From NCBI RefSeq assembly GCF_003334785.1, contig NZ_QOWV01000004.1: a stretch of 64,000 nt of DNA; one strand, given 5' to 3'. Made by a program: the position numbers and the translations under genes. Under the pieces are notes generated by a model, which had not been told where the DNA came from, did not search any database, and saw only the letters and a program-made list of their open reading frames with translations. This stretch comes from Escherichia coli (GTDB lineage: Bacteria > Pseudomonadota > Gammaproteobacteria > Enterobacterales > Enterobacteriaceae). Positions 28,374 to 31,910 of this stretch are shown here, piece by piece. Within the stretch, counting starts at the first letter, position 1; the number at the start of each line of letters is the position of its first letter.

Positions 28374-29732
<1,359 letters not shown>

Positions 29733-29739
29733 TTCGACA

Positions 29740-31365
29740 TCAACCCTGCCCTTCAGGGGTGGGGTTACCTTGCTTATCCTCTGTAAACTCCTTTCTGAGC
29801 ATCACATAATCGAAAACATCATGGTTTGCATCCACAACCCGTGAGTCTCCTTTATAGTGTGCAATCACTTCCTCAAGCGTTTGCGGCTGTTCCGGCTTTG
29901 TTACCCCCATCCACGCATTAATAAGGTAATTATTGTAAGCTGTCGAAAAGATGTTGTTTTCCGTTGTGCGATCCACGCCATCCCCAAGAACGGGGCTATA
30001 CCAGATAAACATCGGGACATGATATGCCTGCTGGCTAGCCTCCCTGCCTCCATGAAAATAGACGTTCTTCTTCGTAGGGTCACGTTCCAGGCCGTGGTCG
30101 GCAAAATACATGACCGAGGCGCGGCGATCTTTTAATAATTCAAAAACCTGACCTAGCAAACTATCTGTGTAATGAATGGAGTTGTCATAGCAGGCATCCT
30201 GATCGTCCTGCGGTTGAAACACGGCGCTGGATTGCGGATAGGCGCTACAAGCCGGTTCATGGCTTCCATTTAAATGAAGAACAATCAGTTTCTTTTGCTG
30301 CGTATTTTGCTGTAATGCTTGCGATAAATGCGGCAACAACAATTCATCAAATCCTCTGACATAAACTGTTTCCATGGCGCGCATGGCGATACTGGTAACT
30401 GCTGTACCATTCTGCCGAAAAGCGGATTGCGAGCTTAGCCAGAAAGTCTGAAATCCTGCTTGATTAGCCATATTAATAATGTTGTCGGGGTAATTATGAA
30501 TGTCATGACTCAAAACAGAATCAGCAGTTAAAGAAAGGGGAACCGACAGCGCAGTGTAAGGTGCGCCGCTTATTGCTTGATTAAACAGTTTGATCTGTTT
30601 TCTTTGTGCTTCAACTTGCGGTGTCGTAGAGCGTGTATATCCATACAAAGACATATTGTCGACACGTACAGACTCCCCCACAATCAACACGTAGGTATCA
30701 ATACCTGTATCCCTGACTGATAATTGAAAATACGGCACCGTGTTTGCAATTGAGAGTAATCTTTGATGCTCTTTCGCTGCTAAAGCAAAATAGTTGAGAT
30801 TGAAAAACGGCGTATAGGTAGCAAATCGCGACGCTAGTATATATGGACTGAACGCTTTTTTATTTTTTGCATCTTTATAAGCAAATTGACAAGCGGAAAA
30901 TAAACTGCCCGAAATGACAATCAGCAATAATATTCCTGTCACTTTTTTTGTCGGCAAGGAAACATCATATTTTATTATTACTGCCAAAAAAAGAAGGGAT
31001 AAAAAAGCAAAGGCACATAGATAAGGGATATACATCCCCAGCATTTTGACAACTTCATCCGGATCACTCTGGAGCACACTAATCGCAAATCCATCATTGA
31101 AAGTTGTACCAAAGGTACACCATGAATAGAGGCTAATACTCATGTCTGCCGCAGTCAGTAACACAAATGGTGCGGCAACAAGCAGGCGAAGCGGAAGGGA
31201 TGATATACGTTTTACAACCAGGATGGTCAGAACGAAGAACAGCAAGCGCTGAACCATATGCGCTCCGGAAGAAGCGACTAAGTTCGTAATACCAAAAACA
31301 ATAACACAAAGATACAACAACCAATGAGATTTAAAAGTTCTAGCAAATTTGTTGAATACTGTCAT
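29740..31365 (-). CDS. yhbX: putative EptA/OpgB-like sulfatase-family inner-membrane hydrolase (phosphoethanolamine-transferase-like), 541 aa
   Basis: ATG at 31365 (MTVFNKFARTFKSHW); N-terminal TM helices plus C-terminal sulfatase-like domain; markedly AT-rich versus flanks; ORF-track start at 31398 is an extension. Confidence 0.85.
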   Translation of the reverse strand: MTVFNKFARTFKSHWLLYLCVIVFGITNLVASSGAHMVQRLLFFVLTILVVKRISSLPLRLLVAAPFVLLTAADMSISLYSWCTFGTTFNDGFAISVLQSDPDEVVKMLGMYIPYLCAFAFLSLLFLAVIIKYDVSLPTKKVTGILLLIVISGSLFSACQFAYKDAKNKKAFSPYILASRFATYTPFFNLNYFALAAKEHQRLLSIANTVPYFQLSVRDTGIDTYVLIVGESVRVDNMSLYGYTRSTTPQVEAQRKQIKLFNQAISGAPYTALSVPLSLTADSVLSHDIHNYPDNIINMANQAGFQTFWLSSQSAFRQNGTAVTSIAMRAMETVYVRGFDELLLPHLSQALQQNTQQKKLIVLHLNGSHEPACSAYPQSSAVFQPQDDQDACYDNSIHYTDSLLGQVFELLKDRRASVMYFADHGLERDPTKKNVYFHGGREASQQAYHVPMFIWYSPVLGDGVDRTTENNIFSTAYNNYLINAWMGVTKPEQPQTLEEVIAHYKGDSRVVDANHDVFDYVMLRKEFTEDKQGNPTPEGQG

Positions 31366-31783
31366 CCAGAAATCCAAGTTCACAACCAATATAAACAATT
31401 ATCAACAATGTTTAATTTTATATCAGACATGTTTTTCAACTCTGATCCATATCAGAACGAAACACTGTTAGTTTTTTCTTTTTAAATGATGCGGCCATTG
31501 CGTTCTCAGTAATTAAATAACATTATCAATGCGTCTCTAAACATTACGCAGAACGTAGCCATCAGTCGTTATACTGACAGGAGCAGGATGGTTTATCGAG
31601 AAGTAAACATATCCGTATTCGTACCGGAACTGGAGTTGACACAATAAAGTGCCAATTATGTCAGTAGAAGGGAAAAATTTATAACTAAGGCGTACCGGCA
31701 CCATCGTTTCAAGGTACCAGCTACGAGTAAAGCAACTGGACGAGATACAGATACCTGACAACCATTCCTCAGACCAGGACCAA

Positions 31784-31810
31784 AACGAAAAAAGACGCTT
31801 TTCAGCGTCT
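31784..31810 (-). terminator. intrinsic terminator of secG-leuU transcript
   Basis: Hairpin agacgcttttcagcgtct followed on minus strand by a U-run (plus-strand A-run 31786-31792), directly 3' of leuU. Confidence 0.65.
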
Positions 31811-31823
31811 CTTTTCTGGAATT

Positions 31824-31910
31824 TGGTACCGAGGACGGGACTTGAACCCGTAAGCCCTATTGGGCACTACCACCTCAAGGTAGCGTGTCTACCAATTCCA
31901 CCACCTCGGC
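31824..31910 (-). tRNA. leuU: tRNA-Leu (GAG)
   Basis: Reverse complement reads GCCGAGGTGGTGGAATTGGTAGACACGCTACCTTGAGGTGGTAGTGCCCAATAGGGCTTACGGGTTCAAGTCCCGTCCTCGGTACCA: 87 nt with long variable arm and 3' CCA. Confidence 0.95.

Follow-up and report, generated by a model that had tools for sequence, protein, structure and literature searches.

The AT-rich yhbX islet between argG and leuU of Escherichia coli as a probable single-gene xenologous replacement

The phosphoethanolamine-transferase family of E. coli K-12 comprises five genes, of which yhbX is the last one without a substrate. Among the described members, OpgE (YbiP), the enzyme of osmoregulated periplasmic glucans, shares with YhbX an N-terminal anchor and a periplasmic Sulfatase-type domain and is 30% identical to it, but the similarity is limited to the catalytic domain (aa 198-454), the GC content of opgE is 0.484 as compared to 0.431 for yhbX, and opgE lies in a different context (ompX-opgE-rybA). 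EptC (CptA), the heptose-I phosphate phosphoethanolamine transferase, can be aligned with YhbX over the full length (aa 18-457), although with 24% identity only and with a score far under the cut-off of 404 bits, and is not its ortholog. EptA (PmrC), MCR-1 and the Neisseria EptA have in common with YhbX the zinc ligands, the threonine nucleophile and a five-helix-type anchor, whereas YhbX is devoid of the EptA_B_N domain and lies outside any basRS operon. In the gene sets published for Salmonella enterica LT2 and Citrobacter rodentium, YbiP, CptA, EptA and EptB are named (in the C. rodentium listing ROD_08171 stands in for YbiP), whereas YhbX is listed for neither (PMC4013655).

We analysed yhbX within a 64-kb stretch of E. 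coli K-12 DNA (hereafter, the window), in which an initial annotation had described a membrane-anchored, sulfatase-family ORF that was "EptA-like". The first part of this description was borne out. Pfam assigned to YhbX the Sulfatase domain (PF00884, aa 224-467, E = 3e-56) and no other domain at E ≤ 0.001, therefore no EptA_B_N (PF08019), and hydropathy alone indicated N-terminal hydrophobic segments of 19 residues at about aa 16-34, 41-59, 61-79, 113-131, and 144-162. The relatives of known structure are NmEptA and EptC (5zzu), with E = 7e-24, and MCR-1. In the alignment to NmEptA (5fgn), which begins at aa 41, residues E231, T271, H369, D423, and H424 correspond to residues of the GET, STA, GSH, and DHG motifs, and they are invariant in 12 sequences of the YhbX clade; H449 aligns with a conserved histidine of EptA but varies within the clade. 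The protein has the sequence traits of the YhbX/YhjW/YijP/YjdB phosphoethanolamine transferases, namely the domain, the threonine nucleophile with the metal ligands, and the anchor, and gave no match in PADLOC. Family membership suggests that YhbX is an enzyme anchored in the inner membrane by about five N-terminal helices, and that its periplasmic domain is zinc-dependent and of the alkaline-phosphatase type; Thr271 would there accept phosphoethanolamine from phosphatidylethanolamine and hand it to an acceptor at the periplasmic face.

This acceptor might be lipid A, as for EptA and MCR, in which case YhbX would be linked to cationic-peptide or polymyxin resistance. The full-length match to NmEptA, which is among the best in the PDB, speaks in favour of this possibility, and so does the fact that the top NCBIfam model is NF028537, "phosphoethanolamine--lipid A transferase". 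However, the 156 bits obtained with this model are far under its cut-off of 500, and the EptA equivalog models NF008619 and NF007160 gave 94.5 and 122 bits as compared to cut-offs of 660 and 561. The CptA models scored 142 (subfamily PRK10649, second-best; cut-off 404) and 124 (cut-off 900), the EptB model 105 (cut-off 493), and all MCR models at most 71, with cut-offs above 1000. When the K-12 paralogs were scored against YhbX, values of 122 (OpgE), 111 (EptC), 102 (EptB), and 85 bits (EptA) were obtained, and no linkage of yhbX to basRS was found, yhbX being a solitary gene and eptA being fused to basRS. Since EptA is, of these paralogs, the one farthest from YhbX, the EptA_B_N domain is missing and all curated cut-offs are far away, "EptA-like" is an imprecise label, and the lipid A function is unlikely. 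The affinities of YhbX are with OpgE, EptC and PMI3040-type proteins, and not with EptA, EptB or MCR; for this reason, judging from sequence, its acceptor is more likely a core sugar, a glucan or another glycan than a lipid A phosphate. A literature search found no functional study of yhbX (b3173) and no biochemical data, in agreement with the earlier statement that the substrate is not established.

The nearest relative of YhbX is an E. coli paralog (64.7% amino acid identity), whose gene occurs both on a circular element of 62 kb and in islands flanked by an integrase. The closest representatives of 50%-identity clusters other than the E. coli cluster were at most 48% identical, and only 121 clusters at E ≤ 1e-30 were retrieved among 1.84 billion representatives. 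A word-indexed protein search was swamped by near-identical E. coli entries, and a scan of contigs with YhbX peptide patterns gave no confirmed locus. Fragments that looked like homologues with 74-88% identity came from E. coli assemblies with many errors and not from other species. No similarity was seen between the region upstream of yhbX and those upstream of its homologues.

The features of the locus are collected in Table 1. In the comparison with the second E. coli allele described below, the sequences are homologous up to 29733 and again from 31782 on, which places the islet borders at 29734 and 31781. As had been noted, a gap of 7 bp (29733-29739) separates the end of yhbX from the argG stop; on the other side, the start of yhbX is 458 bp away from leuU, and the gene is not, as had been proposed, directly beside the tRNA. 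The leuU terminator, a 13-pair stem followed by a T-run that the terminator scan scored on the + strand too, falls outside the islet, whose right junction lies 42 bp past leuU; it is kept in the E. coli alleles, in Salmonella and in Citrobacter. Translation of yhbX from an alternative upstream TTG, instead of the annotated ATG, would give 552 aa.

Table 1. Positions of the features of the argG-yhbX-leuU locus in the window.
Feature	Position	Strand	Remarks	Basis
argG (argininosuccinate synthase)	28389..29732	+	conserved left flank/anchor of the slot	ORF and RefSeq annotation
variable yhbX cassette (islet proper)	29734..31781	.	from argG stop to leuU terminator	comparative breakpoints and genome counts
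yhbX CDS	29740..31365	-	541 aa, putative phosphoethanolamine transferase	ORF, Pfam Sulfatase, PDB relatives
yhbX codons 1-165	30871..31365	-	predicted N-terminal membrane anchor, about 5 hydrophobic segments; most AT-rich part of yhbX	hydropathy
yhbX codons 224-467	29965..30696	-	predicted periplasmic alkaline-phosphatase/sulfatase-type catalytic domain	alignment to NmEptA 5fgn
GC-rich hairpin	29742..29766	.	11-bp stem, in the last yhbX codons	centroid fold, -17.1 kcal/mol
AT-rich yhbX upstream region	31366..31781	-	part of the cassette; GC 0.38	
leuU/secG operon intrinsic terminator	31787..31816	-	bidirectional hairpin, conserved right border of the slot	terminator scan
leuU, tRNA-Leu(GAG)	31824..31910	-		ARAGORN; Rfam tRNA, 52.8 bits

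The visibly higher AT content of the islet with respect to its neighbours, reported in the initial annotation, was confirmed. In sliding windows, GC was 0.53-0.55 in argG, dropped to 0.36-0.42 across 30600-31800, and was back to 0.52 in secG. The GC content of yhbX was the lowest of the 65 genes of the window (0.431 vs. a mean of 0.523, sd 0.026, for the other 64; z = -3.55), as were its GC3 (0.421, z = -2.61) and its codon-adaptation index (0.361, taking the highly expressed genes of the window as reference set), so that the gene stands apart from its flanks in both composition and codon adaptation. Seven rare codons account for 5.4% of its codons, as compared to a mean of 2.5%. Within the gene, the first 570 nt have a GC of 0.391 vs. 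0.452 for the remainder, and the 458-bp spacer (31366-31823) has 0.382. The K-12 paralogs eptA, eptB, eptC and opgE, in contrast, show values of 0.48-0.50.

We then compared the content of the slot in complete E. coli genomes. The yhbX cassette was found in 5179 of 5426 genomes (about 95%), while in 237 (about 4%) it is replaced by a 1.2-kb cassette with a gene encoding a 317-aa helix-turn-helix (HTH) protein; one genome contains a 273-bp spacer alone, and 9 fit neither cassette. The borders, that is the argG stop and the leuU terminator, are identical in all E. coli alleles. Among K-12, O157, Nissle and SCU-306, four phylogroup-diverse strains, the 541-codon ORFs are intact, with no internal stops, yhbX dS is 0.054-0.097 and dN/dS is about 0.1 (0.08-0.15). 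The gene is under purifying selection, as these four-strain dN/dS values show, and is old within E. coli, its dS being comparable to that of the flanks.

Outside E. coli, yhbX was absent from the slot in a genome resembling E. marmotae as well as in Salmonella and Citrobacter; universal presence with conserved synteny is therefore not observed. In the E. marmotae-like contig, the HTH gene occupies the same slot in the same orientation, and the slot is 89.8% identical in nucleotide sequence, as compared to 92.4% for argG and 90.8% for glmM. The HTH gene is also found in the slot of S. enterica (71% amino acid identity) and C. koseri (73%). In S. enterica diarizonae, whose ArgG is 95.5% identical, in S. 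enterica arizonae, in Citrobacter sp. MGH106 and in C. amalonaticus S646, the slot measures only about 180-210 bp and consists of the argG terminator, a REP-like spacer and the leuU terminator. A scan of genome contigs with the leuU sequence gave no more than 16 loci, with E. coli itself not among them, and the genera are therefore sampled thinly; within Escherichia, the comparison covered E. coli and the E. marmotae-like contig, so that the timing within the genus is loose. An alteration of the last two ArgG residues by insertion of yhbX was considered and ruled out, because NKGQ is the end of ArgG in the E. marmotae-like allele too. The HTH protein belongs to a widely conserved family; its AlphaFold model (pLDDT 81) had no significant fold match in the PDB, and PADLOC gave weak matches confined to the HTH region.

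The presence of the HTH cassette in the E. marmotae-like genome, in Salmonella and in C. koseri indicates that yhbX is the derived state. We consider it probable that the segment 29734-31781 is a cassette of one gene that arose by xenologous replacement, yhbX having displaced the ancestral HTH gene. The slot of the common ancestor of Escherichia, Salmonella and Citrobacter would have contained the argG terminator followed by an XRE-HTH gene of 317-319 aa; in the line leading to E. coli, both would have given way to foreign AT-rich DNA, made of yhbX with its native upstream region of about 420 bp, and the allele would have been inherited since about the time of phylogroup divergence and kept intact by purifying selection. 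It should be considered that the HTH gene diverges between genera faster than its flanks (70-74% nucleotide identity vs. 85% for argG), which makes its independent acquisition at the same site in different genera conceivable. The earlier proposal of an old horizontally acquired gene is in any case supported by the atypical composition, by the absence of yhbX from the outgroup slot and by the lack of a close homologue in other genera.

As for the way the cassette arrived, we found in it no mobility gene, att repeat, terminal repeat or IS remnant, nor did we find a donor, so that the insertion mechanism can only be inferred; the cassette may have spread, and may still move, through homologous recombination between conserved flanking sequences and not by means of a tRNA-targeted integrase. 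The initial annotation had instead pointed to the tRNA as a classic integration hotspot. The islet could be an eroded island, integrated by a tyrosine integrase into the 3' end of leuU, with integrase and att repeat since lost. The leuU slot does hold different cargo across Enterobacteriaceae, such as a sugar-acid dehydratase and an MFS transporter in C. amalonaticus ku-bf3 and a chaperone-usher fimbrial operon with an ABC exporter in Intestinirhabdus alba, and the YhbX paralog mentioned above does travel on an integrase-bearing element. However, the islet contains no integrase or integrase fragment, a search of the window with the 25-nt 3' end of leuU, in which 3 mismatches were allowed, gave one match and no second copy, the junction lies beyond the tRNA and outside its terminator, and the exact coincidence of the borders in all E. 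coli alleles is what exchange through flanking homology predicts. The slot can thus be regarded as a recurrent accessory-gene slot, while classic tRNA-targeted integration is unsupported, and we judge the eroded island quite unlikely.

The replacement would have had a consequence for the neighbouring gene. The ancestral argG terminator (GGCCGC..GCGGCC, then a T-run) is present in all non-yhbX alleles and missing in K-12, and the terminator scan detected no canonical terminator on the + strand between the argG stop and 31793. The only terminator-like candidate for argG and yhbX is the hairpin at 29742-29766, 10 nt past the argG stop, which has no canonical T-run. Having lost its ancestral intrinsic terminator through the swap, argG would now form with yhbX a convergent, overlapping transcription pair. 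In MG1655, the two genes belong to the convergent "excludome", and their RNA-seq-defined transcription units overlap in at least 50% of the data sets (PMC12288877). The swap might even be more than neutral, with argG transcription acting antisense through yhbX and the two alleles representing a long-lived selected polymorphism, but we regard this as a rather doubtful extension. If it were true, ArgR-controlled argG transcription running antisense through yhbX would make an E. coli-specific phosphoethanolamine modification respond inversely to arginine limitation; the modified acceptor would be other than lipid A (core sugar, glucan, ECA or protein); and the yhbX (about 95%) and HTH (about 4%) alleles would have been held by selection since before phylogroup divergence.

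A different possibility is that yhbX has no function and persists by drift alone, as a xenogene whose transcription is shut off by H-NS/StpA. The GC content over 30600-31800 (0.36-0.41) is in the range typically bound by H-NS, the Shine-Dalgarno sequence of yhbX is weak, and the promoter scan, not above chance, gave one sigma-70-like site, at 31426-31398 on the - strand; Rfam had no match in the islet and spacer. Moreover, yhbX carries IS insertions in several genomes (IS10, IS1 and IS1203 among them), K-12 knockouts are viable, and the locus serves as a neutral insertion site. On the other hand, the low dN/dS and intact ORFs of the four strains, the invariance of the catalytic residues, the overlap of the argG and yhbX transcription units and the phenotypes of yhbX knockouts in two screens (PMC4551910; PMC9765716) are difficult to reconcile with such a state. 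Purifying selection and the published overlapping transcription, in particular, argue against a permanently silent yhbX, which seems improbable.

Finally, the view that yhbX is ancestral in the enterobacterial slot and was lost elsewhere, its low GC deriving from membrane-protein composition and low expression, is largely refuted and most improbable: yhbX is near-universal in E. coli and weakly expressed genes of the window are also lowish in GC or codon adaptation (yraK 0.479, hpf 0.448, lptC 0.464), but the slot is filled by an orthologous HTH gene in the E. marmotae-like genome, Salmonella and C. koseri, the HTH cassette of the E. marmotae-like contig has diverged in step with the flanks, the 48% limit of YhbX homologues outside the E. 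coli cluster compares with 95-96% for ArgG and SecG in Salmonella, and paralogs of the same architecture have a GC of 0.48-0.50.

The yhbX islet is genuine and, as an old horizontal acquisition, of a fairly ordinary kind that does not overturn the current understanding. Its specificity for the E. coli lineage, purifying selection and the position of YhbX outside the EptA/MCR branch narrow the search for the acceptor, and the same three points bear on the reading of "mcr-like" matches in resistance screens. The slot also offers a clean, dated case in which a one-gene xenologous replacement, as we reconstruct it, would have rewired transcription termination of a neighbour.

With respect to known systems, the YhbX clade includes PMI3040 of Proteus mirabilis and proteins of Buttiauxella, Mixta, Pectobacterium, Microvirgula and Providencia; they align with YhbX over the full length (31-46% identity) and have the same length and domain order (PMC4013655). 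Like yhbX, their genes are solitary, and the Buttiauxella copy is AT-rich with respect to its flanks (0.426 vs. 0.516), but all are found in unrelated genomic contexts. The argG/yhbX pair resembles the convergent excludon pairs, since the two genes are 7 bp apart, convergent and with no canonical terminator in between (PMC12288877); it differs in that the overlap would be an evolutionary by-product of cassette replacement, any regulatory effect being putative. With the tRNA-adjacent islets and replacement islands of E. coli, the yhbX islet shares atypical composition, strain-variable content, borders that are fixed within conserved flanks and a tRNA neighbour. It differs from them in its size of 2 kb, in consisting of one gene with no integrase and no att duplication, in having its border outside the tRNA terminator, and in that the alternative allele is probably the ancestral gene and not an empty site.

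The window is collinear with the chromosome of E. coli strain 52148, from which it differs by 15 mismatches over 64 kb, and with other E. coli chromosomes. Its counterpart in K-12 MG1655 is the region around yhbX (b3173), with the local order rimP, metY, argG, yhbX, leuU, secG and glmM. The rimP leader found in the same region is a known and expected element. The initial annotation had described yhbX as an AT-rich islet ending 7 bp from the argG stop codon; the distance holds and the composition is real, since sliding windows over 30600-31800 gave a GC content of 0.36-0.42 as compared to 0.52-0.55 in the flanks. None of the other 65 annotated genes in the window is as low as yhbX in GC (0.431, z = -3.55) or GC3 (0.421, z = -2.61), yhbX itself being counted among the 65; its codon-adaptation score, calculated with the window's own highly expressed genes as reference, is also the lowest in the window, and its rare-codon content is twice the average. 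The yhbX-leuU spacer (458 bp) has a GC content of 0.38. The four K-12 paralogs, which share the yhbX architecture, have a GC content of 0.48-0.50, and therefore membrane-protein composition cannot explain the low value of yhbX.

Coordinates of the features discussed (window positions, unless preceded by an accession or by an L number, which denotes a locus in another genome)
Feature	Location	Strand	Remarks
rimP leader, RF01770	27776-27876		upstream of rimP, adjoins metY; Rfam, 102 bits
argG	28389-29732	+	
Hairpin	29742-29766		within last nine yhbX codons, 10 nt past argG stop; 11-bp stem, -17 kcal/mol, no T-run
yhbX	29740-31365	-	
leuU terminator hairpin	31787-31816		
leuU, tRNA-Leu(GAG)	31824-31910	-	
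HTH gene, E. coli 2013C-3264	L001:2417-3370		
HTH gene, other copies	L051:1904-2857; L044:5001-5960; L046:5001-5960		
Spacer, E. coli E7-1N7	L031:1831-2103		
Gene-less spacers, Salmonella and C. amalonaticus	L030:3825-4021; L020:724-932		
Cargo by leuU, C. amalonaticus ku-bf3	L023:1-1981		sugar-acid dehydratase and MFS transporter genes
Cargo by leuU, Intestinirhabdus alba	L026:1393-10804		chaperone-usher fimbrial operon and ABC exporter
YhbX paralog (64.7%)	L035:438-2099		on pRHB40-C01_2, 62-kb circular element
YhbX paralog (64.7%)	L038:6137-6778		strain CNR20180903, chromosomal island near glnH, adjoining tyrosine recombinase
eptB, K-12	L041:1117-2976; NC_000913.3 3708616-3710475		91 bp from proK

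When the window was aligned to the yhbX-less E. coli strain 2013C-3264, homology stopped at 29733, immediately past the argG stop, and restarted at 31782, just short of the leuU terminator hairpin. This delimits a variable unit of 29734-31781, which consists of yhbX and about 420 bp of upstream DNA. Besides yhbX, this unit contains no credible ORF, and neither an Rfam family, nor terminal repeats, nor an integrase was found in it.

The content of the slot, i.e., the interval between argG and leuU, was counted in 5426 complete E. coli genomes. The yhbX cassette is present in 5179 of them, with an identity of 97.5-100% except for one genome at 90-95%, while in 237 the slot is filled by a 1.17-kb cassette (GC 0.37), whose + strand encodes a helix-turn-helix (HTH) protein of 317 aa. 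A unique third, gene-less state was observed in strain E7-1N7, whose slot holds only a 273-bp spacer that keeps the argG terminator; about 75 bp of it are common to the HTH allele and about 160 bp, which follow, are confined to this strain among the complete E. coli genomes. The slot content of the remaining 9 genomes is unassigned. A more sensitive search of E. coli genomes for diverged yhbX alleles gave none. In several genomes (matches H1, H56, H76 and H151) yhbX is interrupted by independent insertions, namely IS10/ISVsa5 in ET12567, IS1A, and IS1203 in STEC-like strains. The borders, identical in all alleles, fit an exchange via homologous recombination in the flanks.

The HTH protein of the minority allele has homologues in Escherichia marmotae (89% identity), C. 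koseri (73%) and S. enterica (71%), whose genes occupy the identical site, with the argG terminator on one side and leuU on the other, and have the same orientation. The E. coli HTH allele and the entire slot of an E. marmotae-like contig share 89.8% identity, and argG and glmM of that contig are 92.4 and 90.8% identical to those of K-12; slot divergence thus matches that of the flanks, which is the signature of vertical descent. Moreover, the ancestral argG terminator is kept in all non-yhbX alleles and is absent from the K-12 allele. Taken together, these sequence comparisons indicate that the HTH gene is most probably the ancestral occupant of the slot, and yhbX a derived replacement. The HTH gene is itself AT-rich, with a GC content of 0.375-0.40 across the four copies measured in enterobacteria. 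Its product (317-319 aa) has an XRE-type HTH at the N-terminus followed by an all-helical domain of about 270 aa, belongs to a family with 52-57% identity across Gamma- and Betaproteobacteria, and matched no PDB entry by sequence or by fold (AlphaFold model, pLDDT 81).

An exact-match leuU scan yielded 16 loci; within Escherichia the comparison covered E. coli and E. marmotae. yhbX was absent from the slot in the sampled Salmonella and Citrobacter. The slot is gene-less (180-210 bp) in S. enterica diarizonae and arizonae, Citrobacter sp. MGH106 and C. amalonaticus S646, where it comprises, after the argG stop, a hairpin terminator (GGCCGCGCAAGCGGCC with its T-run), then a REP-like spacer and finally the leuU terminator. 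Palindromic units of the REP/BIME-like type (GCCGGATG..., CTTATCAGGCCTAC) occur in the spacers of Salmonella and C. amalonaticus; REP elements were left or attracted there when the HTH gene was deleted. In Edwardsiella, Hafnia and Tenebrionibacter rimP adjoins leuU, and the slot lacks argG. Directly downstream of leuU, C. amalonaticus ku-bf3 and Intestinirhabdus alba carry different cargo. This difference among Enterobacteriaceae indicates a recurrent accessory-gene slot downstream of leuU, and to this extent the proposal of a tRNA-side hotspot stands. However, nothing favours integrase action at the tRNA, given the absence of an integrase and of any duplicate of the leuU 3' end.

The sequence shows that, with the replacement by yhbX, argG was deprived of its terminator. 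Scanning of the + strand gave no terminator between argG and the leuU hairpin at 31793, and the sole terminator-like structure left after the argG stop is the hairpin inside yhbX. Consistent with this loss, the 'excludome' of 165 convergent overlapping pairs of MG1655 includes argG-yhbX (PMC12288877).

YhbX relatives were searched without a word index, in a set with a single sequence for each 50% cluster. No representative beyond the E. coli cluster exceeded 48% identity, as compared to 95-96% for ArgG and SecG between E. coli and Salmonella, and only 121 clusters reached E <= 1e-30. Named relatives occur in Buttiauxella, Mixta, Pectobacterium, Providencia and the betaproteobacterium Microvirgula; in Buttiauxella and Mixta the genes are solitary and in unrelated contexts, and the Buttiauxella copy is AT-rich with respect to its own flanks. 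Published listings for Salmonella LT2 (YbiP, CptA, EptA, EptB) and C. rodentium (ROD_08171, CptA, EptA, EptB) do not list YhbX (PMC4013655). The closest relative overall is a second gene of the clade in E. coli (64.7% aa identity, GC 0.437), with full-length copies in 455 of the 5426 genomes. Since it is found both on a circular element and on a recombinase-flanked island, the YhbX clade travels on mobile elements; the circular record may represent the island after excision.

YhbX, named 'putative hydrolase YhbX' in RefSeq K-12, has about five N-terminal membrane segments by hydropathy, and Pfam matches no domain in it but Sulfatase, at aa 224-467 (E = 3e-56). Among solved structures it is closest to Neisseria EptA, over the full length, and to E. 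coli EptC, both with E ~1e-23. Residues E231, T271, H369, D423 and H424 align to the EptA metal ligands and Thr nucleophile and are invariant in 12 members of the clade, whereas H449 varies. YhbX scored far below every cut-off of the curated NCBIfam models for EptA, EptB, CptA and MCR. Domain, residues and scores place it in the phosphoethanolamine-transferase family, in none of its characterised subfamilies. EptA is the most distant K-12 paralog (85 bits, as compared to OpgE 122, EptC 111 and EptB 102), and of the available labels 'EptA-like' fits least. The islet gene is a member of a separate YhbX clade, which is in part mobile, and not of EptA. The paralog gene eptB also adjoins a tRNA gene, proK. 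At the periplasmic face Thr271 would, as is standard in the family, take phosphoethanolamine from phosphatidylethanolamine, to pass it on to an acceptor, which we infer is more likely a non-lipid-A glycan than lipid A. The literature searched describes no YhbX function and offers screen-level hints only: the knockout is one of six raising a pspA bypass reporter (PMC4551910), the deletion came up in a screen for drug tolerance (PMC9765716), and genomic SELEX with a minor sigma factor gave a weak peak that was attributed to the yhbX-leuU spacer (PMC5493296).

Among K-12, O157, Nissle and SCU-306, yhbX has intact 541-codon frames, dS of 0.054-0.097 and dN/dS of 0.08-0.15; for argG, glmM and folP, dS is 0.036-0.17 and dN/dS does not exceed 0.044. 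Purifying selection maintains yhbX, less tightly than its housekeeping neighbours, and the comparison of dS values dates the gene to about the time of the phylogroup radiation. The main interpretation, that of an old islet with one horizontally acquired gene for an envelope enzyme, is correct, with dS near that of the flanks and three refinements: an ancestral HTH gene was replaced, the newcomer belongs to its own clade, and argG lost its terminator. yhbX is an already known and annotated gene, and the islet is a known kind of genome feature.
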